Below, one piece after another: positions 35,070 to 63,491 of a DNA stretch of 64,000 nt. Under the pieces are notes generated by a model. That model worked only from the letters and a program-made list of their open reading frames with translations. It was not told the DNA's origin and did no database searches. The translations under genes were made by a program, and so were the position numbers. Origin of the DNA: Scenedesmus sp. PABB004 (Eukaryota); the NCBI GenBank assembly GCA_014905635.1, contig JABVCE010000023.1, positions 1 to 64,000 on the forward strand. Reading direction: 5' to 3'. How positions within the stretch are numbered: the first letter of the stretch is position 1; every line of letters begins with the position of its first letter.

Positions 35070-39800
<4,731 letters not shown>

Positions 39801-39924
39801 GGCCGCGAGCCGCGCCGCGTTCGCGGGGCCGCACGCCGCGCGCCGCGCCCCGCACCGCCCCCAGCGCCGCGCAGGTGCGGTGCGGGAGGCCTCACCGACA
39901 GCGAGGGCAGGCGGCCAGGCCCGC

Positions 39925-41695
39925 ACCTGCGCCGGCGGGCGCGCGGCGCCGCCGCTGCGCAGCCGCTGCTGCTGCTCCTCGGCGCTCGGTCGCGGGGGCT
40001 GTCGTTGTTGGCGCCGCCGCCGCCGCTCTCCCCTCGCCGTGACGCGGTGTGGGCACCGCGCCGGTGCGATCGCGGCGAAGGGGAAAGCGCAGAAGCCTGG
40101 CGTTACCCCGCGGTTCAGCGAACGCACGGGCGCAGCCCCGTCAAGCCCCGGCCGCCATCCAGCGTGCACGACGACCCGGTCAAGCGCCCGCCGCCGCCGC
40201 GGCCGCGAGGCATCGCGCCGTGTTGGGCTCCACGTGCGGCGCGTAGGTGCCGCCCTCCAGGGCGAGCACGACGCGCTCGAAGCTCTTGGCGTTGTGCGGC
40301 ACGCGGCCCGCGGCCCACTCGCGCTTCCATAGAACCTTGGCGGCTGAAGGCGCGTGCGCGCGGTGCACGATCCACGCGCCGCAGTGCACATGAAAAGAGA
40401 AGCCCCGGTCGCGAAGCAGCAGGGTGTGGGCCATCTTGTTCTTGCTGCGCGGCGGCACGCGGTGAGGGCGACGGGCGTTCGCGGGGCGGCGCGGGGCGTG
40501 TGACGGCGAGCTGGCGGGTGGCGCAGCGCGGCCGGCCGGCGGGCGCGGTGCGGGGCTGGCTCACCCGTAGCCTCGGAACACCTCGTCGTAGGGCGTCGCG
40601 CGCGCGTGCGCAGCGTCAAGCACCACCCAGGGCTAAAGCGGTGTGACGTCGGCGCGACCGTGTACGAGGCGCCGGCGCCGCAAGAGCGCCACGCGCGCGG
40701 GTTGGTGTCGGCGTGGCCGTGGTGGTTGGTGTCGGCGTGGAAGAGCTGGAGCAGTCCGCGGTTGGCCATCTGCGCGAGCGTGGCCTTGTCGGCCGTGCCC
40801 GCCGCAAACGCGGCGACGCGGTCCAGCAGCCCCAGCAGCTCGGGCGTCGCGGTCTCGGCCCGTTTGATCGTCGGCACCGGCTCCCACGCGGGCAGGATGA
40901 CCGCCCGCTTGCGCCCCGCCGCCAGCGCGAGCAGGCTGAGCGACCCGTTGCCGGCAGCGTCGGCACCGACGCCGGCGCTCCACGCGCCGCCCGACGCGCT
41001 GCCCGCCAGCGCGGCGGCCGCCGCCGCCGCCGCGAGGCTGGCGGAGGGCAGCATGTCGACAGCCAGCATCGCCAGCAGCGGCGTCGGGGGTGCGAGCACG
41101 AGCGCGTGGTTGCGCAGGCTGTTGATGGGGATCTGCGTCGCCAGGTCGGGGGCGACGACCTCGTACAACAGTGCAGCCGTGAGCGCGCACGCGTCGGCGT
41201 CGGCCTCCACGCTGTTGTGCAGCTGCTGCACCGCGTCGACCGCCTCGCGGAGCTCCCGCCGCTGCGCCGCGGTCAGCGCGCGCGTGCCGTCGCCGCCGGA
41301 GGGCGACACCAGGGGCAGGTAGACCACCGCCGCGAGCGGCCCCGGCCACGCGCGGCACTGCGCCGCGAGCATGGGGAGGCGCTCGAGCGAGAGCGCGTTG
41401 ACGATCGCCAGCGCGTGCGGCGCCGACTGCTTCGCCGACGCCCACAGCTGCGCGGGCTGCAGTCGCGCCAGCTCGTCGTCCCCCACGTGCGCTGCCAGGC
41501 TCGCCGGCGCCAGCGCCGCGGTCTGCTCGGCCGTCGCATTGAGGCAGGCCAGCGTGGCCGCCAGCCGCGCCGGCAGCGGCGCTGCGGTCGCCTCACGGCT
41601 CGCGAGGACCAGGGCCAGCAATACTAGCGTCAGCTGCCCCGTGAGGGAGGGCGCCTGGCGCCACGGCGTGCCGCCGCGGGCGTGCATTGCGCCAA
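39925..41695. repeat. Tandem segmental duplication, copy 1 (GT49 gene plus PRP4 promoter/5'UTR exon)
   Basis: Near-identical to 42524-44250, with scattered substitutions and indels. Confidence 0.95.
40180..41687 (-). pseudogene. GT49 (LARGE C-terminal/B4GAT1-like) glycosyltransferase copy 1, 1-bp frameshift near 40634 (pseudogene or sequencing error)
   Basis: LERLPMLAAQCRAWPGPLAAVVYL, PINSLRNHAL, VILPAWE, FRGYG/KNK, HCGAWIVHRAH. Reads TTT-AGC-CCT where copy 2 has TTT-GAG-CCC (FEPW). Confidence 0.7.
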
Positions 41696-42523
41696 CTCGC
41701 CTAGCTAGCTGGCACCAGTTTTGGTGGCGATCGGAGTAGCGCGTGGCAACGAACGGCGCGTGACCACATTTCGTTGATGCAGCAGCGCTGCTGCTCCCAC
41801 TCTTCACACAAGCGGCAGCAGTAGCGCCGACCCGCGCGCGTGTGCTTGTGCTGGCGGGCGCGCAGCACTCGATCACACTGCGTGGCAGCCACGCAGACAT
41901 CAAAACACATACTACAAGTGTTCCAGCCGGCATTGCAGCACGTCTCCCCCGTAGCTTTCGACCGGGTTCACGGGGCGGCAGCGAGTCCCGCCACCGGAGG
42001 TACCACGGTGTGGGCGGGGTCTATGCAGCCTGTGTACAGCTGCTCCCTCCCTCGCCGCCGGGCCGCCCGGTCTCGCCGTCGTCTGCGAGCTGCAGTGCTG
42101 TGAACCGCGCGTAGAACATGGCGTCGCGTGTCCGTTGCCGGCGAGTGTCGCCGCAGGTTGGCGGCCCGCAGCACCTGTGGCCGTGCCAGTTGTGCCTTGT
42201 AGTCTGCGAGATCGTCGCGGACTGCGAGCGCGCTGGGCCCCGCGGGCCGAGTCCATTGCGTGAGCAGCTCGATCGGCATGCGCGGCTTGGCCGACGGGTT
42301 GACCGGCCGCCGCTCAACGAGCCGCGCACGGTGGCGTGCAGGGGCTGTGCGCGGCGGGCGGGCCGCCGGCGACGCTGCCCGTCGCTGCTGGTGCGGCGGC
42401 CCCTCGGGCTGCTGCCGCCGCGGCGAGTCGGTGTGCGCATGCGGGACACCGTCCTTAAGGGGCGCGGGACCAATGGGCGCGAGCCCTATGGTGTAACGAT
42501 CTTTGTCTTTGTCTTTGTCTTTG
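41696..42523. mobile_element. Lower-GC insert between the duplicated copies, ending (+) in TGTAA plus a (CTTTGT)n tail; possible retroelement remnant or filler DNA
   Basis: Composition shift; ggtgtaacgat-ctttgtctttgtctttgtctttg directly abuts the duplication breakpoint. No RT or transposase motif seen. Confidence 0.4.
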
Positions 42524-44250
42524 ACCTGCGCCGGCGGGCGCGCGGCGCCGCCGCTGCGCGGCCGCTGCTGCTGCTCCTCGGCGCTCGGGCGCGCGGGGGT
42601 TGTCGTTGTTGGCGCTGCCGCCGCCGCTCTCCCCTCACCTGACGCGGTGTGGGTGGCGCGCCGGCGCGATCGCAGAGGGGCAGGCGCAGAAGCCAGGCGT
42701 TACCCCGTGGTTCAGCGAACGCACGGGCGCAGCCCCGTCAAGCCCCGGCCGCCATCCAGCGTGCACGACGACCCGGTCAAGCGCCCGCCGCCGCCGCGGC
42801 CGCGAGGCATCGCGCCGTGTTGGGCTCCACGTGCGGCGCGTAGGTGCCGCCCTCCAGGGCGAGCACGACGCGCTCGAAGCTCTTGGCGTTGTGCGGCACG
42901 CGGCCCGCGGCCCACTCGCGCTTCCATAGAACCTTGGCGGCTGAAGGCGCGTGCGCGCGGTGCACGATCCACGCGCCGCAGTGCACGTGAAAGGAGAAGC
43001 CCCGGTCGCGAAGCAGCAGGGTGTGGGCAATCTTGTTCTTGCTGCGCGGCGGCGCGGCGCGGGGCGTGTGACGGCGAGCGGGTGACGGGCGCGCAAAGCC
43101 GGCGGGCGCGGGGCTCACCCGTAGCCTCGGAACGCCTCGTCGTAGGGCGTCGCGCGCGCGTGCGCAGCGTCAAGCACCACCCAGGGCTCAAAGCGGTGTG
43201 ACGTCGGCGCGACCGTGTACGAGGCGCCGGCGCCGCAAGAGCGCCACGCGCGCGGGTTGGTGTCGGCGTGGCCGTGGTGGTTGGTGTCGGAGTTGAAAAG
43301 CTGGAGCAGCCCGGCGCCGGCCATCTGCACGAGCGTGGCCTTGTCGGCCGTGCCCGCCGTAAACGCGGCGACGCGATTCAGCAGCCCCAGCAGCTCGGGC
43401 GTCGCGGTCTCGGCCCGTTTGATCGTCGGCACCGGCTCCCACGCGGGCAGGATGACCGCCCGCTTGCGCCCCGCCGCCAGCGCGAGCAAGCTGAGCGACG
43501 CGTTGCCGGCGGCGCCCGCGCCCGCCGGCGCGGCGGCCGCCGCCGCCGCCGCGAGGCTGGCGGAGGGCAGCATGTCGACAGCCAGCATCGCCAGCAGCGG
43601 CGTCGGGGGTGCGAGCACGAGCGCGTGGTTGCGCAGGCTGTTGATGGGGATCTGCGTCGCCAGGTCGGGGGCGACGACCTCGTACAACAGTGCAGCCGTG
43701 AGCGCGCACGCGTCGGCGTCGGCCTCCACGCTGTCGTGCAGCTGCTGCACCGCGTCGACCGCCTCGCGGAGCTCCCGCCGCTGCACAGCGGTCAGCGCGC
43801 GCGTGCCGTTGCCGCCGCCGTCGCCCGCGGGCGACACCAAGGGCAGGTAGACCACCGCCGCGAGCGGCCCCGGCCACGCGCGGCACTGCGCCGCGAGCAT
43901 CGGGAGGCGCTCGAGCGAGAGCGCGTTGACGATCGCCAGCGCGTGCGGCGCCGCCTGCTTCGCCGACGCCCACAGCTGCGCGGGCTGCAGTCGCGCCAGC
44001 TCGCCGTCCCCCACGTGCGCTGCCAGGCTCGCCGGCGCCAGCGCCGCAGTCTGCTCGGCCGTCGCATTGAGGCAGGCCAGCGTGGCCGCCAGCCGCGCCG
44101 GCAGCGGCGCTGCGGTCGCCGCACGGCCGCCGAGGCCCAGGGCCAGCAACATCACCAGCGTCAGCTGCCCCGTGAGGGAGGGGCCCTGGCGCCGCGGCGT
44201 GCCGCCGCCGCCGCCGTCGCAGCCGCCACCGCGGGCGTGCATCGCGCGCC
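42524..44250. repeat. Tandem segmental duplication, copy 2
   Basis: Near-identical to 39925-41695. Confidence 0.95.
42777..44242 (-). CDS. GT49 (LARGE C-terminal/B4GAT1-like) glycosyltransferase copy 2, intact, 2 exons
   Basis: N-terminal anchor GQLTLVMLLALGL; PINSLRN, ILPAWE, HHGHADTN, RFEPWVV, PYDEAFRGYG|KNKIAH, WIVHRAH. Confidence 0.85.
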
Positions 44251-44819
44251 ACGCGGCCGGCGGCGAGCTGCGCCGGCGGCGCCGGCTGCTGCCGGCGGCG
44301 TGCCGCGCGCCCTGGCGGCGCCCAGGGCTGGTCAGGGGCTCGACACCAGCGACTGGGAGGCGGCCACGGGGCCTGGGGCGCGCGGGTGCGAGCTGCTCGC
44401 GGGCTGGGCAGGCGGGCGCCGCTCGCCGGGGCGCACTGGGGCGGCGGCGCTGCGTGAGTTAGGCGTGGACGTACAATTTAAGTAGCCTCAAGCCCAGCGG
44501 GGGAGGCGGGGCGGCGCGAGCGGGCTGTCAGCCCCGAGCGGAGCCCCTAGGCGCCAGCGGAGGCCGCCCCGGCGCGCGCGAGGCGGGCGGCGCGCTCCCA
44601 CAGTGGCCTGGCCGCCAGCTCAGAGCTCACGGCCACCTCGCGCCCAGCGCGAGCCCGCCATGCGCGGCGCGGCGGCCGCCCGCCGCTCGCTGGCCGCGCT
44701 GCTCGCGCTCGCCTGCTGCGCCGCGTGCGCCGGTCAGGCACCCCTGCTGGTTGCGGACGTCCGTCTGCCGCTGGTGGGCACGTAGCGGCGGCCGCGCACC
44801 GCCGCGCGGCGGCCGGCGG
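44127..44819. repeat. Inverted repeat arm A: GT49 anchor segment, divergent promoter, propeller-gene exon 1
   Basis: Reverse complement of 51892-52683; the core 44440-44790 is nearly identical. Confidence 0.92.
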
Positions 44820-45850
44820 TGGCGCGGCTGGCGCGGCCGGCGCTGCTGGCGCGCCGCCGCCGACGCGCCGCCGCCTACGCGCCGAAATCAGCGCCGCCGC
44901 CACCGCGCGGCCGCCGCCGCTCGCAGGGCGCCTCCACCGCCGGCCCGCCGCTGTTCAACCCCTCGCTGGTGGTGCACGGCGGCTTGGTGCTCGCGACGGC
45001 GCGCAGCCTGAGCAAGGCGGTCGTCAACGGCACAGAGTGGTGGACCAGCGTTGGCCACCTCTGCGTCGGCGCCGCTGGCGCCGACGAGCTGCTGGCGACA
45101 CACGCGTGCTCGGTGTTCGACCCCTGGCGCGCGAGGTGCGCGGCCGCGCCGGCGGCACCAGCCGCCGTCGCCCTGCCGCCTTTCGCCCCACCGCACGCTG
45201 CGCGCGCCCACCGCCGCGCCGCACACTCACGCACGCCATGTGCACGCCGCGCCGCGCGCGCCGCAGCCACCTGGCCTACGCCGACTGCCTGAAGCCGCCG
45301 GGCGCGGAGCCGCCGGTCGCGGGGCTGCCCAAGGACGCGCGGGGCGTGGAGGACCCCAAGCTCTTTGTCTGGCCGGGGCGGGGCGTGTTCGCCGTGTTCA
45401 ACCGCAAGCCCCGCGCCGACGACCCCGCCGCGCCCGCCTGCGCGCGCTTCGGATTCACGCAGTTCCTGCAGACGGTGCGGCGCCGGCGCGCCCGGCCGCG
45501 CGGGGATCGGCGAGGCGCGCGCGGCGCGTGGCGCGCGGCGCGCGGCGCACAGCCCACCCCCGCGCCGCCGCCGCCGCCGCCGCCGCCAGGTGCTCTACGA
45601 CGGCCCGAGCCCCGGCGCCGACGCGTGGCACCTGCGCGCGCCCGTGCAGCTGAGCGCGGGCGCGTTTGGCGCCGAGCTCTACGCGCCCCGGCAGGGCGGC
45701 AGCGGTCGGGGCGGCGCGCCGCGCCCCCCGGCGCGGCTGGTCAAGGAGAAGAACTGGATGCCATTCGTCTGGAGCGGCGAGCTGCACCTCACGCACAGCA
45801 TAACGCCGCACCGCGTGTTCAGGCGCGCGGCGCCGCGGCGCAGGGCCGGC

Positions 45851-45908
<58 letters not shown>

Positions 45909-46835
45909 GGAACGCGGCGCGCGCGGCGCGCGGGGGCTGGCGGCGCCGCGCCTGACCGCCGCCGCGGCACCGCCGCACGCAGGGTCAACGCGTCGGGCGC
46001 CGCGGTCGAGCAGTGGGTGAGCAGCGCCAAGGCGCTGCTGCCGGCCGCGTTCCTCGGCAGCGGGGCGCACATGCACATGCACGGCGGGCCGCCGCTCGTG
46101 CACGTCGACGCGGCGGCCAGCGGCCTGGGGCGGCCCTACTTCCTCGGCGTCATGCACTTCTTTGACGTGAGCCAAAGGCCTTGGGGTTTAGGGCCTGGCA
46201 AGGCGGCAACTGTAACTGTCTTTGTCTTTTTTTTTAGGCGGGGCCTTGCCAGGCTGGCGCTTGCCAGGCTGCCGGAGCCGCGCCCGCGCGCGCGCCGACG
46301 GCCCCGCCGCCGCCGCGCAGATGCCGGAGAGGCCCGGGGCGCGGCGGTACAGGCACTACGCGTATGGCATGGAGGCGGGGCCGCCGTTCCGTCTCTGCGC
46401 GGTCGCGGCGGCGCCGCTGCCGCTGCCCGGGCCCGGCGCGGCAAACGCGAGCGCGCCGGGCGCGCAGCCCAACATGTGGACCAAGTGCGCTAGCTGCGGC
46501 GGGGTCGCCCGGCGCTTGCCAGCCGTCCTGCTGGCCGTCCTGCTGGCCAGCAGGGCTGGCCGCCTTGCTGGCTGCGGCTGAGCTGCGCCGCTGCCGCCGC
46601 CGTGCGCAGGGGCATCCACTTTGTGAGCGGCCTGCAGCTCGCGCCGGGCGGCCTCGTGCGCGCGTCGTACGGCGCCTTTGACGCCCAAGCACGGCTGTCC
46701 ACGTTGAGCCTGGCCGCGCTGGAGGCGCAGCTGGGCGCCTGGGACTGCGGCCGCGCAAAGGTGCTGCACGGCGGCGGCGCGCGCGCCGCGTACGCGTACG
46801 ACGTGCGCGCCCCGGCCGCGGCGGGGCGAGGCTGA
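44660..46835 (+). CDS. Secretory-pathway five-bladed beta-propeller glycosyltransferase/phosphorylase (GT91 beta-mannosyltransferase / GH130 / GT108-like), 7 exons
   Basis: Signal peptide; motifs LFNPSL, GVEDPKLF, KEKNWMPF, HGGPPL, YFLGVMH, PPFRL, IHFVSGL, SYGAFD. Confidence 0.75.
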
Positions 46836-47156
46836 GCTGGCAGTCCAAGGGGCAGGGAGGAGGGCCGCCGCAGTCGCTGTGAAGTTAAGGCGCCCGTGCG
46901 TTCGCGCGCGTGTCGTGACGCGGTGCAGCGGCGCGCGCGCGATCAGCGGCGGCCGCCGCGCGCCCCCGCGTCGGTGCCCGCGCGTCGGCGCCACAATCCC
47001 CGCCTCCCTCGCCAGCGCCCGTGCTCGGCGCCAGCAGCACGCGGCCGGTGCTGCTGCACCGCCCGCTCCCGGCGCCCAGCAGCGTCCGCGCCGCGCGCCC
47101 TCGCGCGCCGACGCTCCTCGCAGGGGCCGCGTCGCGCACCGGCCCATGCCAACTCG

Positions 47157-50100
47157 ATGAGCGCGGAGCAGGGCCGGAACAGAGGCACAAAGAGAAAACT
47201 GGCCGACGAGGGCAGCCCCTCCCAGGAGCCTAGCTCCTCGGAGGTGGAGGCGGAGGTGCGGCCCGCACGCGCGCGGGCGTGGCGCGGCGGCGTGGGCGCC
47301 GGGCGGGGGAGACGCCCCGCGCGGGCCGCCTGGGCGCGGCCGCCCGGCGCCTGCGCGGCGCCTGCGGGCCGCCAGGGCGCGGAGAGTGCCCTGGGCAGCG
47401 TCTCCGGGCGGGCAGCGCGGACCTGGGCGCGCTGGTGGGGGCGCTGGGGCGCGGCATCGACGCCCTCTGCTGCTCGAACTGTCCGCAGGTGGGGGCGCTC
47501 ATCGCGGGCATCCGGGCGGCATGCAGTCTCCCCGTGGACAAGGTGGACCGCACCGCCCTGCGCAAGCAGGCGCACCAGCTCGCAGACTTCTGCAAGACAG
47601 GTGCGAACGCGCCGGCGGAGGCGCAGCGGCGGCGCGGCGCGCGGCGCCAGCGGCCGGCCGCGGCGCGGCCCGCGGCACGTGCGCCCGTCGCAGCCGCCCG
47701 GCTGCCGCCGGGGCTCGCGCGGCGGGCGCGGCCCCGCGCCGCGAGTCGCTGCGCCGCCTCGGCCCCGCGCCGCGCGTGGAGCAGCAGCGCCGGCCGCCGC
47801 GCGCCGACCGCGCGCCGCGCGCCGCCCGCCCGCCCCCGCGGCGCCGCAGATGAGCTGGTAGAGATGATCGTGGGCGCGGGGGCCATCGACGCGGTGGTGC
47901 CCCTGCTCACGATCGGCGACAAGGCCGACGCGGCGGTGCAGCAGAGGTGCGCCGCCGCGCGCGCCGCAGCGGGCGGCGGCGCCGCGCGCCCGCGCCCGCG
48001 GCTGCGGCAGGCGCGCGCGCACGCACACGCCGCGCGCCCCCTGGCTCACGCCCACATTTGCTCGCCCCCGTCGCGCGCGCGCGCGCGCGCGTTTGCTTGC
48101 CCCGCCCCGGCGCCGGCGCCGCGCCGCCGCAGCTTCACGGAGGTGCGCAAGGAGGCGTGCTTCATCATCGGCCTGCTCGCCGTCAAGCCGGAGTACCAGC
48201 ACAGCATCGCGAGCGCGCAGGCGCTGCCGGGCCTCGTGCGCCTGCTCGCCGCGCACAACATCAGCGGCCCCGCGCCGCGCCCGCCGTCGGCCGCGGGCGG
48301 CCCCGGCAGCGCCGGCGGCGCGCCCGGCGGCGAGCGCAGCGGCAGCGGCGGCGTCGCGCGGCGCGCGGCCGACGCGATCACCAACCTGGCGCACGAGAAT
48401 CTGGAGATCAAAAACCTGGTCCGCCGCGACGGCGGCATCGCGCCGCTCGTGCGCCTGCTCAGCAGCTGGGACCTCAAGGTTCAGCGCGCGGGCGCGGGCG
48501 CGCTGCGCACGCTCGCGTTCAAAAACGACGACAACAAGCGCCAGATCGTGGAGTGCGGCGCGCTGCCGCTGCTCATCCAGGTGCGGCCGGTCGCGCGCGG
48601 CGGCGGCGCACTCGGCGGGCGAGCGGGACGGGGGCGGCCGCGGGCCGGCGCCGCGCGCGCAGGCACGCGCACCGCGCGCCCTGCCGCCCACGCCCGCCGC
48701 CGCCGCCCACACCCGCCGCGCCGTGCATCTGCAGATGCTGCGCTCCGAGGACAGCGGCGTTCACTACGAGGCGGTCGGCGTGATCGGCAACCTCGTGCAC
48801 AGCAGCACCGAGATCAAGCAGCGCGTGCTCGAGGAGGGCGCGCTGCAGCCGGTCATAAACCTGCTGAGCAGCAGCTGCCACGAGAGCCAGCGCGAGGCGG
48901 CGCTGCTGCTGGGCCAGTTTGCGACGCAGCAGCCCAACGACGACGGCCCCGACTACAAGAGCCGCATCGTGCAGCGCGGCGGCGTGCCGCCGCTCATCCG
49001 CATGCTCGCCTCGCCCGACACCGCGCTCAAGGAGATGGCCGCGTTTGCGCTCGGCCGCCTCGCCCAAAACACGCACAACCAGGCCGGCATCGTGCAGGTG
49101 CGTGGTTGGGTGTTGGGGGGGGGGGGGAGGGGGCGGCGGCGGCGCGCGCGCGCGCGCGCGCGTGCGCGGGCGGCGGCGGGCGGGGACCTGGCCGGCCGCT
49201 GACGCGCGCCCCGCCCCGCGCCCCGCCCCGCCCCGCGCCCCGCCCCGCCCCCGCCCCGCCGCGCCGCCGCGGCCGCGTCCGCGGCGCGCGCCAGTGCGGT
49301 GGGCTGCCGCAGCTGCTGGAGCTGCTTGAGAGCAAGCACTATAACCTGCAGCACAACGCCGCGTTTGCGCTGTACGGCCTCAGCGACAACGAGGACAACG
49401 TCCCCTGCATCGTGCAGGCCGGCGGGCTGCAGCGCCTCTACGACTGCTGCGAGCGCCTGCAGGTGCAGGCGTCCAAGGTGCGTGCGGCGCGCGGTGCGCC
49501 GCGCGGCGCGGCCCGCGGCGCCGGCGCAGGCAGAGCCCCCCGCCCGCGCGCGCGCCGCCGACCCCCCGCCCCTCCCGCCCCTCACCGCGGCGTGTGAATC
49601 GCCGTTGCCGCGTAGGACTGCGTGAACAAGACGATCGCGCGCATCAAGCAGAAGCTCGAGCGCGACGACAAGCGCGTGCTGAGCCACGTCATCTACTCGC
49701 TGCGCTCCAGCGACCGCTCCGTGCAGCAGGCGACGGCGGTCAGCCTCGCGCAGCTCGCGCCGAGCGGGGAGCTGAAGCACATCTTTGTGGACAAGGCGGG
49801 GCTCGACGTGCTGCTCGACCTGCTCACAGACACTGCCGCGACCGCGAGTGCGCGCGCGCGCGCGCCGCGCGGGGGGGCGGGGGCGGCGGCGGGGCAGGCA
49901 GGGCGGCGCACGCGGCGGGCAAGGGGCGGCGCGGCGCGGCGGGGCGCCGGCCGGCCGGCCGCCGACCGGACCGGCGCGGCGCGGCGCGGCGCAGAGCAAC
50001 TGTGCGAGGGCGCGGCGGCGCTGCTGGAGCTGGCGAAGAAGGTCAACGCGACGAGCCCCGTGGAGGCGCAGCCGGCGCAGCCGCAGAAGAGCGTGTACCT

Positions 50101-51224
50101 GGTGCGCGCACACCAGCGGGGGGCGCGCGCCGCGGGGCGCTGGCGCGGCGGGAAAAAGGGGGCGCGCCCGCGCCGGCCGGCCCGGCCCGCCGTCGCACGG
50201 CCACAGCCAGCAGCGCGCCGAGTTTCTCGCGCGCTCGCACCGACCCCGCCGCCGCCGCCGCCGCCGCCTCTGCGCCGTGCGTGTGTCACGCCTGCCCCGC
50301 CTCGCCATGCACCGCCCCCCCCCCCCCCCGCCAAAGGGCGAGGAGTATGTGAACAGCAAGACGCTCGCCGACATCTGCTTCCTCGTCGAGGGCCGCCCCT
50401 TCTACGCGCACCGCATCGCCCTGCTCGCGAGCAGCGAGGCCTTCCGCGCGATGTTCAACCAGGCGCGCCCCGCGTGCATGCACGCCGCCGCGCGGCACGC
50501 CGCTCCCGCGCGCGCCGCGCCGCCGCCGCCTCTGCGCGCCCCGCCCGCTGCGCCTGCGCGCCGCGGCGCGGCGCGCCCACGCCGCCGCGCCGCGCCGCGC
50601 CCGCGGCCGCGCAGGGCTTCCGCGAGAGCGAGGCGGCGAGCATCGACATCCCCAACATCGGGTACGGCACGTTCACGTGCATGATGCGCTACATCTACTG
50701 CGGCAGCGTCCAGGTCGACCAGGACGACGCCATGGACCTGCTCCAGGCGCGCCGCGGCCAGCGCGCGGCGGCGGCGCGGCGCAGGGAGGGCGCGGGGCGC
50801 GGGGGCACGCGGCGTGGAACGCGCGGCGCGTGCAGCGCCCGACGCCCGCTGTCGCCGCTGGCGCGGCCGCCGCGGCGCAGGCGAGCGACCAGTACCTGCT
50901 GGAGGGGCTGAAGCGGCTGTGCGAGGCCGCGCTGGCGCAGGTGGGCGCACGCGCGTGCCGCGGCGCGCTGAGGCGCGGCGCGGCTGTGCGAGGTGCAGCG
51001 GCGCCTGCGCGGCGCGGCCGCGGCCCAACCCGCGCGCCGCGCCGCCGCGCCGCGCGCCGCCGCAGTCGCTGTCGGTCGAGAACCTGCTGGACGTGTGGCA
51101 GGCGAGCGAGGCGTACAGCGCGCCGCAGCTCGCCAAGCGCTGCGTGCTGTTTGCGCTGGAGCACTGCCAGGCCATCATCGGCGCGCCGCCGCCGCCGGCG
51201 CCGGCGGACAGCGCCGACGCGGCG

Positions 51225-51256
<32 letters not shown>

Positions 51257-51487
51257 GCCGCGCCGCCCGCGGAGCCGGGCGTGCTCGGCAGCGCGGCGGC
51301 GTTTGCTGAGCTGATGCAGCGCATGGTCCCGGCGCTGCGCTCGAACCTGGTGGAAGACCTCAACCAGGCGGCGCGGCTCGCGGAGGAGGGCGCGGCGGCG
51401 GCGGGCAGCGCGCTCGGCGGCGTCGCCGCCACGGCCGCCGCGTTTGCCGCCGCCGCGGCGGCCCCGGCCGCGGGCGCGGGCGCGTGA
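47157..51487 (+). CDS. ARIA: ARM-repeat + BTB/POZ protein (ARIA/ABAP1 family)
   Basis: LLAVKPEYQ, ARRAADAITNLAHEN, KVQRAGAGALRTLAFKNDDNKRQIVECGALP, ESQREAALLLGQFA, LQHNAAFALYGL; BTB region DICFLVEGRPFYAHRIALLASS. Confidence 0.95.
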
Positions 51488-51891
51488 GCGCGGGCGCGTG
51501 AGCGCCGGCAAGAGCGTGGGCGGGGCGGGGTAGCAGCAGCGGGGCGCGAGCTCGACGGCGCGACGAGTGAGCGGGCAGTGTGCACAGTGTGTTTTGCGTG
51601 ACGTGTGTGCAGGGGCGCCGCGCGCCGGCCCGTGGCGGCCGCAGCGGCGGGTGGGTAGGCACAGCATCATCGCCACGGCGTCCGGGCGGCGGCCCCCTGC
51701 GTCTTTCAGGTGCACCGCGCGCGCGCGCCGGCGTCGCCCCTCCTCCTCCAGCGCCCCCGGCGCTCCGCACTGCTTTGCGCCCTGCATTGTTTTGAGAGCG
51801 CGTGCAGCTGTTGCAAGCCCGAATCGGGAGCTGGCGGTGTGTGCGCAACCGGCAACGTGCGCTCTCGTCCGCGGCGCCGGCAGCCGCGACG

Positions 51892-52683
51892 CCGCCGGCC
51901 GCCGCGCGGCCGCTACGTGCCCACCAGCGGCAGACGGACGTCCGCGACCACCAGGGGTGCCTGACCGGCGCACGCGGCGCAGCAGGCGAGCGCGAGCAGC
52001 GCGGCCAGCGAGCGGCGGGCGGCCGCCGCGCCGCGCATGGCGGGCTCGCGCTGGGCGCGAGGTGGCCGTGAGCTCTGAGCTGGCGGCCCTCCCACTGTGG
52101 GAGCGCGCCGCCCGCCTCGCGCGCGCCTGGGCGGCCTCCGCTAGCGCCTAGGGGCTCCGCTCGGGGCTGACAGCCCGCTCGCGCCGCCCCGCCTCTCCCG
52201 CTGGGCTTGAGACCGCTTAACTTGTACGTCCACGCCTAACTCACGCAGCGCCGCCGCCCCAGCGCGCCCCGGCGAGCAGCGCCCGCCTGCCCAGCCCGCG
52301 AGCAGCTGGCTCCGCGGGGGCCAGGCCCCGTGGCCGCCGCTCAGTCGCTGGTTTCAAGCCCCTGACCAGCCCTGGGCGCCGTCAGGGCGCGGCACGCCGC
52401 CGGCGAGCAGCCGGCGCCGCCGGCGAGCAGCGCCGCTGAGCTGCTGCCGCGCCGGCGCGCGGCTGCAGCTAGGCGCGTGGTGCGAGGGCCCAGACCCACC
52501 CCACGGTGTTCTAACGCCGTCGCGCCCATGGCTGCGCCCTACAAGCAGCTGGCGGCCAGCTACGGCGCGGGCCTGGCGCGCACCCACAGCGGCGGCGGCG
52601 GCGGCACGCCGCGGCGCCAGGCGCCCTCCCGCGGCGGCGGGCAGCTGCCGCTGGTGGTGGTGCTGTCCCTGGTCCTCGCCGGC
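51892..52683. repeat. Inverted repeat arm B: orphan exon 1, divergent promoter, GT64 anchor segment
   Basis: Reverse complement of 44127-44819. Confidence 0.92.
51925..52038 (-). pseudogene. Orphan copy of propeller-gene exon 1 (38-codon signal-peptide exon) with intact ATG and GT donor
   Basis: [40 protein letters not shown]; no downstream exons; faces the ARIA 3'UTR. Confidence 0.85.
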
Positions 52684-54634
52684 GCGGGCGCCACGGCGCT
52701 CCTCGCGAGCTGCGCGGGCCGCGCGCGCGGAGACCTGGCGCACCTGACGCCCGTGCCCGCGCGCAGCCTCAAGCTGGAGAGTGACTACACGCACAGCGGC
52801 GAGATCACGCGCCCCGCAGCGCCGGCCAAGGCCCCAGCGCCGCTGGCGGCCAGCGCGCCGCGCGCCCCGGCCGACGCGGGGCGGCGCGCCGCGCCCGCTG
52901 CCGCCGCTGCCGACGCCGCCGGCGCGGGTGCGGCGGGCGCCAACGCCTCGGCGCCCGCCGCCGCGCCGCGCGGCCGCGGCCTGGCGCCGGGCGTGCACCA
53001 CCTGGAGCTGCGCTGGCCCAGCCACGACGCCATCGGCGCCGAGCTCGCCGCGCTCGCTGCGCTCGCGGCGCAGCCCGGGCCGCCGTCCGACGCACCGCGC
53101 GGCGGTGCGGCTGGGGGCCCCGCCGGCGCCGCCAAGCCGGTGTCGGTGGTGATCATGAACTGGTCCCGCCCCCAGGTGCGCCGCCTGCCGTGGCGGGCTG
53201 CGCCGAGAACCTGCTGCGATGTGCTGAGCCGCCCCCGCCCGCGCCCGCGCGCCGCAGAACACGCGCGCGATCCTGGATGCCTACACCCAGGCGCGCCGCC
53301 GCCGCCCCCGCCGCCTGCGGCGCCGCCACAGCTGCCACTGCTGCCAGCGGCGCCGCGCGCCGGGCGCGCAACCGACCGCCGCCGCCGGCCGCCGCCGCCG
53401 GTCGCCGCCGCAGGACCCCGCGTACGCTGGGCTGGTGTCGGAGGTCATCGTGCTGCACCTGCGGCGGAGCAGCTACTTTGAATACCCCAGCCCCAAGGCG
53501 AGCCGGCGCGCGCGCATGTGTCAGACTCTAGCGTGGAGGGGGCGGCGGCGCGGGCGCCCGTCGCTGCGGCGCGCCGCAGCCGCCGCGACGCCTGCGCACC
53601 GCCCGCCGCGCTGTGCCAGGTGAAGCACGTGGTCGACTATGCGGCCAACGCAAAGCACGGCCTCAGCGTGCGATTCCTGGGCTGCCTGCTCGCCGCCGAG
53701 GCCGAGGTCCTGCTGCAGGCGCGGCGGGACTGCGCGGCGGTGGCGCCGCGCGCGGCTCGCGCGGCCTAGGCGCGGCGGCTCGGCGGCGGCGCGCCCGCGC
53801 AGCGCGCCGGGGCCGACCCCGCCCCGCCCCGCGCCCCGGCCCCGCCGCCTCGCAGGACGACGACGTGCTGGTGCTGCCCGGCGGCCTGGCCGACCTCGCC
53901 GCCGCGCGCGCCGAGGCGCCGCACCCCGCGCAGCTGGTCGGCTTCCGCGGCCGCGACTGGAACAGAACGCACGAGCCGTCGTGAGCGGCCGGGCCGCGCC
54001 GCCGCCGCCGCCCCCGTCGCCCCTGCCCTGCTCGCCGCCCCGGCCGGGCCGCCTCACCGCACCCTCCCTCTCGCCTCCCCCGCCCGCCCACCAGGTACAA
54101 CCGCGCCGAGCCCCGCCCCGGCTCGCACCCGGTCGCGCTGACCATCGCGCTCGCGGCGCCACGGCCCGTGTGCGCCGCGTTCTTCAAGTACGCCCCCGCA
54201 GTGGAGGACCTGGTCGCCGACGCGCTGCCCCTCTGGAACGGTCAGCCGCAGCGGCGCGGCCGCCACGCGCGCGCTCCCTCGGCTGCTGCCAGCCGGCCGC
54301 GGCCGGCGTCCGCGCGCGCTCGCGCGCCCGCCCACCCGCCCTCTCCCCCCGCGTGCCCGCAGGCGAGGACATCTTCCTGTCCCTGGTCAGCCACAAGCTC
54401 TCCTGCGCCCTGCCCCGCACGCTGCCCGGCGGCTGGCCGGAGAAGGCCGCGACCAGGCTGAAGTACTTCCTCGCGCCGTCCACGTCCGACGTGGGCATGC
54501 ACAAGCGCTTTGCCGCGAGCCACTTTGCGCACCGCCAGCGCTTCCTGCGCCTCGCGGCGCGCCGCCTCGGCGTGTACCAGCCGGGGCGCCGCTTCGCCGA
54601 GGGCTGCGGCGCCGCGCCGGCCGGCGGCGCGTGA
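52528..54634 (+). CDS. GT64 (exostosin C-terminal/EXTL2-like, GT-A fold) glycosyltransferase, type II membrane, 7 exons
   Basis: TM LPLVVVLSLVL; VSVVIMNWSRP, SEVIVLH, LSVRF, VLLQDDDVLV, LVGFRGR, WNGEDIFLSLV, HFAHRQRFL. Confidence 0.8.
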
Positions 54635-55173
54635 GGCGGCGGCGCGCGCTGGGCCGCGCGCGCGCGCCGAGCGAACGGCGGTTGACTCTCGTGCGGCGGT
54701 GCTCCTGGCCGCGGCGGCATTTCACAGCAGTTCCGAGGGGGGGGGGAGCTGAGGGGGGGGGGCGTGGACTGGGCTGACTGACGCACGGGCGATCGGCGGG
54801 CGGGCAGGAGCTCGAGTGACGGCTGTGTGAGCGAGCGCGCGACAAACTGGCGGACCCCCGCGGCGGCTGAGGTGACCGAGTGTTCTCACCCGCGCCGCCG
54901 CCAGACGCCGCGCCACGCTGCTCCTGTGCACCTTGCGCCAAACAGCCCGCCCGCCAGCAGCCCAGAGCGCTCACGCAGCAACGAAAGAGGGACCCGAGCG
55001 GCCGCGCACTGGAATGCACCCCGCCCCGCCCCGCCCGCCCCGCCCCGCCCGCCCGTGCGCGCGCCGCCGGCGGCGGTGCTCGGCGGCGCGCTGCCTGTGG
55101 CCCGACCAAATCCCCCCGCACGCAACGTCCCGGACAAGTGCAGTGAGCCGCCCCGCGCACGCCCCGCCGCCGC

Positions 55174-56110
55174 TCACTTGCCGGCGGCCAGCTGCGCCAT
55201 CGCCTTCGCCACCGCGGCGTCGCTGATCTCGCTGGTCGTCGACACCATGTGCCCCTCCAGCCCCGAGTCGACGGCCCCCGGCGTGGTCGTCAGGCAGCCG
55301 TGCTCCGTCACGTCTGCGGCGGCGGCGGCGGCGAGCACCCACCGGGCGGCCCCCGCCGGCGTCAGCGCTCCCGCACCCCGTCGCGCGCGCTCGCGCACCC
55401 GCGCCTCGCCGCGCGCGCCCCTCCCCGCGCGCCGCGCCGCGCCGTGCCGCGCCCCTCCCCCCGCGCGCCCCTCCCCCTGCGCCGCGCCGCGCGCACCGAG
55501 CTTGACCGCGCGCTGGATGGCCGCGCCCTCCGCGTCGACGGCAAAGATCTTCACGCAGAAGTCGTCGTGGATGCGTTGCACCGCGACGACGTGGGCGTTG
55601 GGCTTGACGATGCCCATGCGGCTCGCCATGACGATCGCCTCGCCCAGCACCGCGTCGCCGTGCGGCTGGGGCGTTGCGAGCATCGGCAGCAGCCCGCGCG
55701 TGAGCAGGCACTGCCGCGCGTTGTGCCTGCGCGGCGGCGGGGCGGGTCGGGCGGCGCGGGTCGGGTCGGCGCGGGCCGGCGGCAGGCGGCGCGGAGGCCG
55801 CGGCGCGCGGGCGGGCGGGGTTTTGGCGGGGTTGAGGGCTCACCGCCCCTCCAGCTTCCACTTGAGCGTGTCGCTGACGAGGCGCGGCACCACGAGCGTG
55901 AGGATGGGCATCGGCGGGCGGTACTTGGCCACCAGCTGCGCGGTGCGGCCTGCGAGGGGAGAGGGGGGGGGGGGGGCAGCATGGCCGCGGGCGCGGCGGC
56001 GGCGGGCCGGTCCGTGGGCGGCGCGCGCTCGCTCGCGGCGGCCCCGCCCCGGGGCAGCGAGGGCCGGCGGCGGCGGCGCAGTCGGCGGGCGGCGGGCGCG
56101 GCGCGGCGGT

Positions 56111-56161
<51 letters not shown>

Positions 56162-57860
56162 GCGCACGCGGCCGCACCGGTGTGTGTGTAGACGACGATG
56201 AGGCTCGCGCCGACCTTGTCCGCGGCGCGCACGGCGCTGCTGCTGATGCTCTCCAGCTTGCTCACGTAGGGCGAGGTGTGGAACAGCCGGTTGCTGCTGT
56301 CCGCCTTGGACATGCCCTGCGCGGCGCGGCGGGGCGGGGCGGGGCGGCGCGGGCGGCGCGGGGGCGGCGCGGGGCGGCGCGGGGGGCGGCGCGGGGGCGC
56401 GGCGCGGGGACGGGGCGCGGGGGCGGGGCAGGAGGGGAGGCCGGGGTGAGGGGAGCGCGCGGCGCGGCACTCAGAGGGCCGCCGGCGCGGCGCGGGCGGT
56501 GCGCGGCGCCGCGGTGCGCGGCGGCGCGCGGCGCGGCGGCGCGCGGCGCGGCGGCGCGCGGCGCGGCGCGCGCCTGGAGGTTGCCGTAGCTGGAGGGGCC
56601 GAAGCGCGTCATCGCCTTGATGGCGAGGCTGAGGCTGCTGAACGACTCGTTGCTCGGGATGCGGCGCGGCGCGCGGCCGCGCCCGGGCTCGTGGTCTGCT
56701 GCGGCGGCGCGCGGCGCGGCGCGGCGCGGGGTGAGGCGGCGGCGCGGGGTGCACGGACCGCGCGGGGCGCGCGCGGCGCGCGGCGCGCGCGGCGGTGCCG
56801 CGCACCCAGCTCTGTGAGGTCGCCCTGGCTGGAGAGCGGGCTGGCCTCGTCCCCGGGCGGCGAGTGCCCGCCGGGCGCCGCGTGCTCCTCCACCTCCCAG
56901 GCCGTGTCCAGCAGGTGGTCAAAGTGGTAGTGGTGGTCAAACACCTGGTGGTCAAAGTGGCAGTGGTGGCGGTCAAACGGCGGCGGTCAAACGGCGGCGG
57001 TCAAACAGCCGGTCAGACGCGTCGCTCAGCGCCGCGCGCGCCGCGGGCGGCCGCGCACGCCGCCAGCGGGCGCGCCACGGCGGCGGCGGCACGCGCGGCG
57101 GCGGCGGCGCGGGCGGGCGGCGCGGTGCGCGCGCCTTCTCTGCCTGGCGCGCGATGGAGACGAGCGTCTGCACGCTCTCAATGGGGAAGAACCCGCGCAG
57201 CGTCTCCTGGCCGAGCAGGATGCCGTCCACGCCGTCCAGCACAGCGTTGGCCACGTCTGTGTCAGGCAGCAACGGCAGGGAGTGTGAGCGTCAGTGTGTG
57301 TGTGTGTGTGGGGGGGGATGTGGAGGGCGCGCGAGGGGCGAGAGGAGGGGCGGCGCTGGCGCGCGGGGCCACGCGCGGGGGCGCCACGGCGCGCGCACCC
57401 GTCGCCTCGGCGCGCGTGGGGCGGGGCGAGACGGCCATCGTGTCGACGACGCGCGTGATGAGCACCGGCTTGCCCACCTGACCGCGCGCGCGCGGCGCGA
57501 CGACCGGGTGGGCGCGCGCGCCGCGCCGCCGGCCGCGCCGCGCCGCGCCCCGCCCGCGCCCCCGCACAGCACGCGGAAGCCCCGCCCGCGCGCGCGTGCG
57601 CCGCGCGAGCGCGCCGCGCGCGCACCAGGTTGCAGGACTGTATGAGTGTCTTTTGGATGAGCGCCATCTTCTCAGGCAGGCAGTCGAGGCCGAGGTTGCC
57701 CCTGCGCCGCGGGCGCGCGGCGAAAACAGGGCGGCGGCGCGCGCGCGGCGTCGGCCGCCGCGCGCCACGCGCGCGCCCACCCACCCACCCGCCCACCCGC
57801 CCACCCGCCCCCGCACCCGCCACCCACACCGACACCCACCCACCCACCCACCCACCCACC

Positions 57861-57923
<63 letters not shown>

Positions 57924-60458
57924 CCACGCCCCCGCCCAGCCCCCATGCAGCACACCCACCTGCTGATGATGATGCCGTCAGCCTCGTTGAGGATGCCCTT
58001 GAAGTTGAGCAGGCTCTGCCGGCTCTCCAGCTTGGCAAAGATCTTGGTCGTGCCGAGGCCCACCGCGTCGAGGAACTCGCGGGCCTCGACCACGTCGTCC
58101 ACGCTGCGCGCGCGCGCGCGGGAGGAGGGCGGGCGGCGGGGCGGGGCGGGGCGGGTCGGAGGGAGGGGCGTCACAACGGACCGGAGGGAGGGGCTTGGAG
58201 GGGCGACCGCGCGCGCGCGCGCGCGGGGCTGCGCGGCGGTGGTGTGCGGGCGGCGCACCTGCGCGTGTAGCTGAGGGAGATGAAGTCGACCTCATAGTCC
58301 TGTTGAGGGCGAGTGAGGGTGAGTGTGAGTGAGGTGATTGGTTGTGTGTGCGAGTGTGAGTGCAAGTGAGGGTGCGTGAGTGTGAGTGAGCGTTAGTGAG
58401 TGTGATTGGTTGCGGGGCAGTGTGAGTGAGTGGTAGTGAGGGTGCGTGAGTGCGTGCGAGTGAGTGTGCGAGTGTGCGTGTGCGATTGTGTGCGAGTGAG
58501 TGCGTGGCGCACGCCGCAGCGACAAACGCACGCGAGCCCGCGCCCCGCCCCGCCGCCCACGCGCGCACGCACAGCCCTAAACCCCCGCCCCCGCCCCCGC
58601 CGCGCCGCGCCGCGCGCCTGCGAGAGGGAGATGAGGCACTCCTTGTCGTAGTCGGAGAGGAGGGGCAGGTCGTTCTGCATGTTGAGCAGCTCGTCGCTGC
58701 TGCGCTCGACGTGGAACACCGTGAGCAGGCCGTCCAGCAGCGCCTCGTTCTTGGCCACGCACACGACGTCGGTGCCGTCGACCACCTCCACCACCTGGTT
58801 AGTGGGCGCGGGCGTGTGGGTGTGCGTGTGGGTGTGGGTGGGAGAGAGAGAGAGAGAGAGAAGGGCGCAGTCGGGCGGGCGCGCCAGCCCACGCGGCGGC
58901 CGGCCGCCCGCCGCCCGCCCACCTTCCCGCGCCCGCCCCGCCCGCCTTCCAACACCCACCCATGCCCCGCCCGCCCACCCCGCCCGCCCACCCCCGCCTG
59001 CACACCCACCTCGAGGTAGAGCGACGCGCTGTCGGCGCCGCTGACGAGGTAGCGGCCCACGTACAGCGTGTCGCCCTGCTCCATCATGCCAGCAAACTTG
59101 GTATACGTCACCGGCAGCACCGTGTCGCTGCACTCGACGTCTGGGAGGGAGGGGGAGGGGGGGGGGGGGGGGGGAGGGAGAGGGAGGGCGGCGGCACGGG
59201 GCGTGCGAGCGGCGGCGCGGGGCGTGAGCGGCAGCGGGTGGTGAGCGAGGGGCGACACGAGGCGCGAGCGAGCGCGATTGAGAGGGCGAGTGAGGGGGTG
59301 CGTTGTAGAGCGTTTGGGGTTTGTCCGGTCCCAAGGGAAGGCCCCCGCCGACGGGGCGCGGCGGGATCCGCCTGTGCAGGGTGCGCGGTGGGGGTCGCTC
59401 TGCCGCCAGGGAAATGCCGCGGCCGCAACGGACGGGTGCGGCGGCAGCGAGTGTCTGGGGCGCGTGCCGCGCAGCGCGCCGCGCGCTGCGCGCGCCGCGC
59501 CGCGCCGCGCCGCGCCGCTGCCCCCGCGGGGCGCGGGGGGGGGGGGGGGGGGCTTGCCGCCGTCCCGCCGCACCGCGCGTCGTGAGCGTGAGCGTCTGGC
59601 CCGCCGCCACGCTGATCTCCTGGCCCGCCTGGTTGGGCCAGCCGTCCGCCTCGATCCGGAAGGGGCGGCGGATCATCACCTGCGCCCGCCGGCACGGCCG
59701 CGTGAGCGCGCCGGCAGCGCCGCGCGACGCCCGTGACCCGCCCAGCCGGCCGGCCGGCGCGGGGGGCTGCCGCCGCGCCGCGCGCCGCGCGCCGCGCGCG
59801 CGTCGCGCGCGCCGCGCTGCGCTGCGCCGCACCTCGCGTCCGAGGGTGTCGAGCATGATTGCGCAGAGCTTGCGGCTCGCCTTCATCGCGCTCTGGAGGT
59901 TGTCCAGCGAGCGCCGGTGGTACTCGATGGGGCCCCAGGTCAGGTCAAAGCTGGGGGCAGAGGGAGAGGGAGAGAGGAGAGAGAGGGAGGGAGAGAGAGC
60001 GGGGTGGAGGGCGCGTGGGCGGGGTGCGGGCGCGTGGGCGCCGCCGCCGCGCGGCGAGGCGGCGCCCTCCCTCCCTCCGCGCGGCGGTGCGTAAGAGGTG
60101 CCCCCTCACCGCGCCGCCGACATGCCCGCCTCCAGCATCGCGACCTGCTTGTCCACCGCCTGGCATGCCGGGCCGATCGTGCCGACGATCTGCGCGGCGG
60201 CCGCGGCCGCGGCAGCAGGAGCGGCGCGTGTCGGCGGCGGCGGCGGCGGCGGCGCGGCCGCGCGGCCCTGCTCCTGCCCCCTCGCCCCCTTGACCACCCG
60301 CGCCGCGCGCCCGCCCCCGAGCGCCTCGCCGGCCTGCCGCCCGGCGCCCCGCGCCGCGCGCGCGCCTTGGTGGCGCAGTAGTTCTTGTCCGTGGGGTCGG
60401 CCGGCTCGAGGATGCTGTTGAGGTTCAGGTCCTGCAGGAAGTGCGTCTTGGACTTCAT
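55174..60458 (-). CDS. PYK: Pyruvate kinase (plant cytosolic-type), about 17 exons
   Basis: [91 protein letters not shown]. Confidence 0.96.
56110..56160. repeat. (GCA)n intronic microsatellite
   Basis: Directly visible; similar tracts at 17664-17697 and 9170-9196, (GGC)n at 45853-45906. Confidence 0.9.
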
Positions 60459-62353: not shown

Positions 62354-63441
62354 TCAGGGCGCGGCCTCGATCTGGAACGAGCGCGGGCCGCCGCCCTCGC
62401 AGTGGATGTCCCACATGCGGTGCAGGAGGCGCTCCAGGTCGCGCACCCAGCGCTCGGTGTCAAAGAGCGGGCAGGTGAGGCGCGTGGCCTCGAGGCGCGC
62501 GCGCAGCGCGCCGCGCGCGCCCGCGTCGCTGCCGAGCGCGACCGCGCGCTCCTCGTACTCCGCCTGGCTGCCCACGACCATCTCGGCGCCCAGGCCCGAC
62601 GCGTGCGCGAGGCTCGCGGCGACGCGGCTCGCCATGCGCTCCATCGGCAGCGTGACCATCGGGCAGCCGCCCCAGAGCACGTCGCAGCCGGTCGTGTGCG
62701 CGTTGCAGAGCGGCGTGTCGAGGAAGACGTCGGCCAGGCCGCTGCGCCGGATGTGCAGGTCCTTGTGCGCCACGTCGGTGAAGATGATGCGCTCCGGCGA
62801 CACGCCCGCCGCCGCCGCCGCCGCGCGGATGTTGGCCTCGCCGTACGGCGGGAAGCGCAGCAGCCACAGCACGCTGCAACGACGCGTGCGGCAGGGCCCG
62901 GCGGCGAGCGCGGCGGCGCGTCGGCGGGCGCGCGGCTGCGCGGCTGCTGCGCCGGCGCGGCGCGCGGCGGCGCGCGCCGCGGGGCGCGCACCTGTCTGGC
63001 ACGCGGTGCAGGATGCGGCACCAGGTCGCAAAGGTGTCTGGGTCGTACTTGTACAGCTGGTTGCTGCAGCTGAAGATCACGCGGTCCTCGGGCAGCCCAA
63101 ACTCGGACCGCCGCGGCAGGCGCGACTTGTCGAGCACCTCCCTGCGCGGCGGCAGACGCGGCCGGCCGGCCGCGCGCGCGCGCCGCGTGAGCACAGCGCC
63201 GCCGGCACGCCGCGCCGCGGGGGCCAGCACGCGCCCCCGCCGCCGCCGCCGCCGCCGCGCGCGCGGCGCCGCCCGCCTTGCGCGTGCCTGTGCGCGCGCT
63301 TGTAGTCGTTGACAAAGTAGCAGTGCGGCATGAGCGCGAGCGCCTCGCTGTAGCAGTGCGCCAGCTCGGGCGGCGACACGACCGCGTCGCTGATGAGGTA
63401 CGGCAGGAACGGCGCGCCTGCGTGTGTGCGTGCGTGCGTGC

Positions 63442-63491
<50 letters not shown>

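Follow-up and report, generated by a model that had tools for sequence, protein, structure and literature searches.

A probable fossil inverted duplication of a two-way 5' region beside a chimeric glycosyltransferase gene in Scenedesmus sp. PABB004

The question raised by a 64,000-nucleotide stretch of the genome of the green alga Scenedesmus sp. PABB004 (contig JABVCE010000023.1, positions 1 to 64,000; hereafter the window) is whether a 7-kb segment between two inverted repeats can be turned round or is the fixed relic of a duplication. The segment holds the body of a secreted beta-propeller gene with a predicted GH130 fold and a gene for a protein with armadillo repeats and a BTB domain (ARM-BTB gene); a tandem pair of GT49 glycosyltransferase genes lies outside the left repeat (arm A) and the body of a GT64-like glycosyltransferase gene outside the right one (arm B). 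A preliminary description of the locus had seen in it the logic of an inversion switch, with a fossil inverted duplication or a staggered-break inversion as the simpler alternative, and it is this simpler alternative that the divergence of the arms and the evidence of their junctions favour. We propose, with a probability of about 0.65, that the locus preserves an inverted segmental duplication, fixed and 'fossil', of a two-way 5' region, accompanied by the capture of a 5' gene end. About 0.7 kb with the head-to-head 5' ends of the GT49 and propeller genes would have been copied, inverted, to a site 7 kb away, where the 3' end of the ARM-BTB gene meets the body of GT64. There the GT64 gene may have gained from the copy a 5' flank that is probably the same two-way promoter, as well as a GT49-derived type-II membrane anchor in frame, while an orphan propeller exon 1 would have been left behind, pointing at the 3' end of the ARM-BTB gene with nothing to splice to. 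The two copies would then have diverged by 6-13%, save for patches re-homogenised by gene conversion (among them a 137-nt block), and the whole event may have belonged, with the origin of the tandem GT49 pair, to one small burst of local duplication.

The inverted repeat and the contents of its arms

The arms are joined by two blastn alignments in inverted orientation, 44244-44839 with 52452-51872 (91.0% over 599 columns, E = 0) and, as an outer piece, 44126-44216 with 52683-52590 (86.2% over 94 columns); a repeat search resolves an inverted core of 408 nt at 96% (44385-44792 and 51906-52313) with pieces of 80 nt at 90% and 73 nt at 77% beside it. Self-comparison of the whole window (blastn, E <= 1e-30; 64 kb) returns two long repeats only, the inverted arms and a direct repeat of the GT49 genes, so the inverted match stands far above chance. 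The arms had been described as reverse complements of each other at 44127-44819 and 51892-52683; the repeat does lie near these positions, with the refined limits given in Table 1, but about 9% of aligned sites are mismatched and three indels separate the arms. Relative to arm A, arm B is 13 nt shorter just past the start of the intron and about 110 nt longer between the anchor-coding part and the core, the GT64 start codon lying within this extra sequence. The similarity ends past the first ~67 nt of intron 1 of the propeller gene, and each arm continues into unique sequence on either side.

Both arms contain the whole propeller exon 1 with its GT donor, as had been claimed: 112 of the 114 bases are alike, and the GTGGGC donor and the in-frame stop after it are the same. 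The claim that each arm also holds the N-terminal segment of an outward-facing glycosyltransferase is borne out by the encoded anchors, which are homologous (18 of 30 residues identical between residues 27-56 of the GT64 gene and residues 15-43 of GT49). The N-terminus of the Tetradesmus GT64 protein is different, its alignment with the right-hand gene beginning only at residue 157; together with the GT49-like N-terminus this indicates that the GT64 anchor is derived from the arm and read in the GT49 frame. As for the divergent promoter that had been placed in each arm, the head-to-head geometry is present, and it is this geometry that suggests a promoter function. On the minus strand below 51925, the orphan exon 1 of arm B has no coding partner: gene models were built by exon chaining on codon usage with a GT-AG dynamic programme, which gives approximate structures, and the orphan chain scores 6.8 within 1 kb and only 27.5 with the help of antisense pieces of the ARM-BTB gene, against 103-403 for real genes.

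Two other origins of an arm were rejected, a retro-copy because the arm includes spacer and intron sequence, and a mobile element for want of further copies in the window, a terminal structure and a transposase. Sensitive blastn of the arm-B-specific insert, the region upstream of GT49 copy 1 and the 3' region of the ARM-BTB gene against the window gave short GC-rich chance matches only, and Rfam at the gathering threshold gave no match in 39000-56000. In the metagenome contigs of the Joint Genome Institute (JGI), a 21-nt motif of the arm core had no match and none of 550 pattern matches obtained with the GT49 exon as protein query was confirmed.

An assembly artefact, in which one arm would be a mis-join or a fold-back chimera, had been named as a condition that would undo the first description, and we consider it extremely improbable. 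The 137-nt identical block could confuse a short-read assembler, yet indels as well as 9% of sites set the arms apart, each runs into unique flanks, and a swap within the identical block would yield only the other inversion isomer. The locus also lies on a 559,020-nt contig (identified by a 100% match to the PABB004 protein P0017) of an assembly which, in the part of its description drawn on here, comprises 39.8 Mb in 77 contigs with an N50 of 1.3 Mb, 78.5% GC and 1.31% repeats (PMC12571836). Independent evidence comes from the one public run with related DNA, a freshwater metagenome (X1; share 0.06), which yields short contigs of a relative about 94-97% alike, none of them spanning an arm. 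One X1 contig of 155 nt, from a relative ~94% alike, reaches across the inner junction of arm B (51762-51917), with 110 nt of its length outside the arm and 45 nt within it, indicating that arm B is real and older than the split from that relative; since this junction is the same in both isomers, the contig is silent on orientation. A further X1 contig, of 1003 nt, matches 41266-42255 at ~97%, with 29 other letters and 5 gaps, which places a close relative of PABB004 in that freshwater sample. A single low-depth X1 contig joins 52606 to 51868, the edges of arm B, with 9 other letters between, and is probably a chance match in (GCC)n sequence; many other X1 joints were discounted, their sides being 20-32 nt of GC-rich low-complexity sequence.

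Table 1. Positions of the arms, of the genes around them and of other features in the window
Feature	Position	Strand	Remarks
GT49 copy 1	40180..41687	-	tandem partner of copy 2; one base absent near 40634
GT49 copy 2	42777..44242	-	exons 44242-43119 and 43041-42777; Pfam PF13896
Arm A	44126..44840	.	GT49 codons 1 to ~39 (minus strand; ATG 44242), 418-nt head-to-head spacer, propeller exon 1 (44660-44773), first ~67 nt of intron 1
Identical block, 137 nt	44610..44746	+	counterpart in arm B 51952-52088; 50 nt of proximal 5' untranslated region and first 87 nt of exon 1 (signal peptide)
Secreted GH130-fold (five-bladed beta-propeller) gene, predicted	44660..46882	+	7-8 exons, chained model; 3' end uncertain, stop at 46835 or 46882
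ARM-repeat and BTB gene (ARIA-like)	47157..51487	+	~13 exons, stop 51485-51487; Pfam
Arm B	51872..52683	.	reverse complement of arm A plus ~110 nt (roughly 52453-52589) with the GT64 ATG (52528)
Orphan copy of propeller exon 1 in arm B	52038-51925	-	ATG, frame and donor intact
GT64-like glycosyltransferase gene	52528..54634	+	residues ~22-56 (tail and membrane anchor) from arm B
Pyruvate kinase gene	~55183-58114		side observation
GT41 (O-GlcNAc transferase/SPY-like) gene	62519-63983	-	Pfam E 1e-42 to 7e-47

Junctions of the arms and the direction of copying

The junctions with the neighbouring genes bear on which of the two arms came first. The direct repeat of the GT49 pair (39925-41677 against 42524-44208) is 91% identical with gaps over 1768 columns and ~95% by substitutions, and its right end, at 44208, abuts arm A; by part, identity is 94.4% in the 3' untranslated region (UTR), 94.9% in exon 1 and 87% in the intron. 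Similarity between the two copies extends over the body and the anchor as far as the ATG and is lost about 5 nt upstream of it, so that copy 1 has a different 5' flank. Because the copies are alike through the anchor, the anchor-to-body junction at arm A is likely to be native to GT49, provided that the inverted duplication did not precede the tandem one. On the other side, propeller exon 1 (ATG 44660, donor after 44773) encodes a signal peptide and DVRLPL and joins exon 2 at 44927, the same join being present in the NCBI model P0017; since the family motif D..L..G...FNPS spans the join, this junction is native to the propeller gene. On these sequence comparisons both ancestral junctions appear to survive in arm A and none in arm B, whose own junctions look secondary, and a templated inverted insertion fits this better than a one-step staggered-break inversion.

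Staggered breaks are a known source of such structures: at Drosophila inversion breakpoints, inverted duplications at both ends of the inverted segment are their recognised signature, as described in the portion of that work used here (PMC1885836). The PABB004 locus resembles these breakpoints in having a short inverted duplicate at both ends of a unique segment, and in that duplicated 5' ends can make chimeric or orphan gene pieces; it differs from the one-step model, in which each copy keeps one ancestral junction, in that arm A appears to keep both. Under a history of this kind the ancestor would have had the propeller gene head-to-head with GT64, and a staggered cut would have duplicated the 5' region and given GT49 its start, with the tandem GT49 duplication following later. 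We regard this as unlikely, though worth serious attention, for, judged by substitution identity, the tandem copies do not predate the arms (94.4% in the 3'UTR against 87% in the outer arm) and their homology ends 5 nt beyond the ATG. It would, however, require GT49 to have obtained its anchor from GT64, whose Tetradesmus counterpart has a different N-terminus, and it needs one more ordered event. Between the two mechanisms, an origin by templated (template-switch) inverted insertion is slightly favoured over a staggered-break inversion.

GT49 copy 1 lacks, relative to copy 2, one base near 40634, within the conserved HRFEPWVVLD and next to a TTT run; this may be either the mark of a frameshifted pseudogene or an assembly indel.

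Divergence, probable gene conversion and the question of a switch

The divergence between the arms is far from uniform, identity rising from 87% in the outer parts to 94% in the core. The first ~39 codons of GT49 (tail and membrane anchor) agree at 79 of 91 positions, the outer 5' region at 121 of 139 and the core upstream region at 212 of 226, while the proximal 5'UTR is identical (48/48) and the start of intron 1 agrees at 48 of 53 positions, the 13-nt indel apart; the stretch around the GT49 ATG, where arm B has its extra sequence, aligns poorly and was left unscored. The two differences in exon 1 are one silent change (44752) and one leucine-to-valine change (44747), with leucine in arm A and valine in arm B; arm B has G at the site that corresponds to 44747 and C at that of 44752. 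The preliminary description had noted arm-B variants (LVVAD against LLVAD). Exon 1 and the proximal UTR together differ at 2 of 162 sites, compared with 59 of 536 elsewhere in the arms (Fisher p = 2e-5) and 14 of 226 in the adjoining core (Fisher p = 0.018). The longest perfect run, of 137 nt, was reached in none of 5000 permutations over the whole arms and at a frequency of 0.0034 when the core alone was permuted. A similar patch exists in the tandem GT49 pair, in which 278 nt (42709-42986) are identical (0/5000 permutations) and the differences fall without bias on the three codon positions (20/368, 18/369 and 18/368); copy 1 of that pair also has the missing base in a conserved stretch. Homogenised patches without a sign of purifying selection in the GT49 pair point to gene conversion as a local habit, suggesting that the perfect block of the arms is likewise a product of patchy gene conversion, which fits better than the alternative cause, selection on exon 1 of arm B. 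Gene conversion in the arm core had been set as a check by the preliminary description; the non-uniform divergence and the perfect block agree with it, with conversion as the probable cause and selection as the competing one.

The geometry of a flip is as had been claimed. Wherever it fell between the glycosyltransferase start codons and intron 1, a crossover between the arms would turn 44841-51871 round and leave the four coding bodies whole, and the propeller body would then stand, in terms of geometry, behind exon 1 of arm B and the GT64-side spacer. Occasional homologous recombination might on this basis maintain both orientations in some cells or strains as an unprogrammed inversion polymorphism, and with every gene intact either isomer would be viable. 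That the arms have exchanged sequence in the past is shown by the 137-nt perfect block and the 408-nt core at 96%, and the tandem GT49 neighbours have been homogenised in the same way. The outer arms have nevertheless drifted to 87%, and by general knowledge a 137-nt run within a 96% core is a poor substrate compared with known flip/flop repeats, so that we hold such a polymorphism to be rather improbable. In flip/flop systems recurrent recombination is expected to keep the repeats alike. Near-identity along the whole length, as for ongoing exchange, is not what is found here (91% overall, 87% in the outer parts, three indels and a block of only 137 nt), and the 87-94% identity outside the block, together with the indels, is unlike that of repeats kept alike by frequent exchange.

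Two yeast systems provide the comparison, each taken from part of the published account. In the mating-type flip/flop of Ogataea polymorpha, a 19-kb inversion is induced by starvation, both orientations are seen and the MAT genes come under centromeric repression (PMC5720833). The PABB004 locus shares with it a segment of several kb between inverted repeats, whose inversion would change gene neighbourhood or promoter without breakage; it differs in being known in one orientation, in having arms 9% diverged and in having no evident silencing context. On chromosome XIV of Saccharomyces cerevisiae, a 24-kb flip/flop inversion polymorphism arises from recurrent homogenisation of a gene family, with both orientations in populations and species (PMC9731477). 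There, as here, duplicated gene parts make up the inverted repeats, and patches re-homogenised by conversion become substrates for inversion; unlike that case, PABB004 is known from one assembly.

A programmed switch, in which regulated inversion would move the propeller gene from the GT49-side to the GT64-side promoter with the perfect block as crossover site and the diverged outer arms as two distinct promoters, and thereby vary surface glycans, is in our judgement most improbable. The layout agrees with it, the identical block lying exactly between the diverged spacer and the gene body, and the neighbours are all glycan-related (GT49 twice, the GH130-fold protein, GT64). Against this, the arms are diverged, a flip merely turns the ARM-BTB gene round with no evident gain, and a Pfam scan of 61 coding pieces from the window (22 + 39), which may have missed short exons, yielded no recombinase or transposase family. 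What stands of the switch proposed in the preliminary description is thus its layout, anatomy and geometry; the diverged arms (87% outer, 94% core) and the lack of a recombinase among the scanned pieces speak against it. Homologous-repeat inversion switches are, to our knowledge, known mainly from yeasts and organelles and not from green-algal nuclear genomes, and the literature on inversion switches and breakpoints offered no green-algal parallel, in searches not aimed at algae. We likewise give very little credence to the idea that the 137-nt block is a maintained crossover site at which homologous exchange, rare or regulated, would turn the 7-kb propeller/ARM-BTB cassette round; if true, it would be a recombinase-free eukaryotic promoter-swap switch for cell-surface glycan enzymes in a green alga, the propeller gene being driven by either the GT49-side or the GT64-side two-way promoter.

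Several points weigh against a fixed inverted duplication copied from arm A to arm B. The anchors of GT49 copy 1, GT49 copy 2 and GT64 lie at roughly equal distances from one another, which makes both the order of events and the direction of copying tentative, and a one-step staggered-break inversion from an ancestor with propeller and GT64 head-to-head fits if the tandem GT49 duplication came later. The perfect block implies that the arms recombined at least once after the duplication, and conversion between inverted repeats can resolve as a crossover, that is, as an inversion; we infer, rather than observe, that the orientation is fixed and that the segment does not flip at present. The orphan exon 1, finally, is intact in ATG, frame and donor and is the best-kept part of arm B, as would be expected also under selection for its use after a flip.

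Neighbouring genes and the significance of the locus

The assignments of the genes around the arms differ in strength. The left-hand gene was rightly called a GT49, copy 2 matching Pfam PF13896 at 50.2 bits (E 3.1e-13), above the curated cut-off of 27. The ARIA-like call for the second gene of the segment holds as well, armadillo repeats (E 3e-22) being followed by a BTB domain (E 4.5e-4, 20.8 bits against a cut-off of 20.5); its 3' untranslated stretch reaches the inner edge of arm B. For the right-hand gene, the name GT64 draws on its last exon, which is 60% identical to a Tetradesmus obliquus protein named GT64 domain protein in UniRef, but Pfam gave no match on six exons of the gene, searched singly.

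The beta-propeller call for the first gene of the segment was right at the level of the fold. Pfam found no match for six single exons of the gene, nor a relevant family for six homologues and 30 family members, and profile searches of the family against PDB sequences gave nothing significant. One exon retrieved 16 relatives from a library of 1.84 billion proteins, and a full-length relative retrieved 37 proteins, every one named 'hypothetical' and lacking a precomputed Pfam domain, from Tetradesmus, Raphidocelis, Monoraphidium, Haematococcus, Chlamydomonas and others. A first structure model from 10 sequences (pLDDT 55, weak fold matches) was superseded by a model of the homologue P0013 from a 30-sequence alignment (pLDDT 88.7, pTM 0.88), with which Foldseek returned GH130 beta-mannoside phosphorylases/synthases and Leishmania GH130-fold mannosyltransferases at the top (best E 8e-9, TM 0.47-0.61); a look-up with a protein language model pointed to GH130 likewise. 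The middle gene is thus, by the predicted structure of its homologue, a GH130-fold beta-propeller, a likeness of fold that stands apart from membership of the GH130 family proper, Pfam and PDB having given no match at the level of sequence. The chlorophycean proteins of this family (P0013, P0020-P0045) are secreted, of ~400 residues, without a Pfam model, with an invariant EKNWMP motif, several copies per genome and a confidently predicted GH130-like propeller of five blades; they form a candidate family of beta-mannoside-acting enzymes. A long (GGC)n microsatellite occupies 45844-45910 in a propeller intron, and GCC/GGC runs scattered over the locus produce many spurious short repeat pairs.

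In the NCBI annotation, P0017 (HT031_005532, 'hypothetical protein', 1683 residues) fuses the propeller, ARM-BTB and GT64 genes (44660-54634) by reading through arm B, and is surely an artefact of prediction. The window is ~80% G+C throughout, with three-base periodicity of short exons and a third-position G+C of ~0.95-1.0, and the neighbours of the locus are ordinary nuclear genes (ribosomal protein L13e, YEATS, UPF0047, LRR, kinase, pyruvate kinase and GT41).

A segmental duplication that captures the 5' end of a gene, with its promoter and an N-terminal targeting exon, is a route to the birth of chimeric genes. The PABB004 locus would follow it in that the body of GT64 continues in frame from an anchor that, like its 5' flank, is a copy of part of a neighbouring gene, and would depart from the usual case in that the donor was a two-way 5' region, so that the orphan first exon of a second donor gene came along. 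Should the segment be found in both orientations, the importance of the locus would be much greater. As it stands, a small inverted duplication would have handed the promoter and membrane anchor of one glycosyltransferase to another, an orphan first exon remaining, and patchy gene conversion would have acted on nearby duplicates in a genome of 78.5% GC, of which, by the part of its description used here, repeats make up only ~1.3% (PMC12571836).

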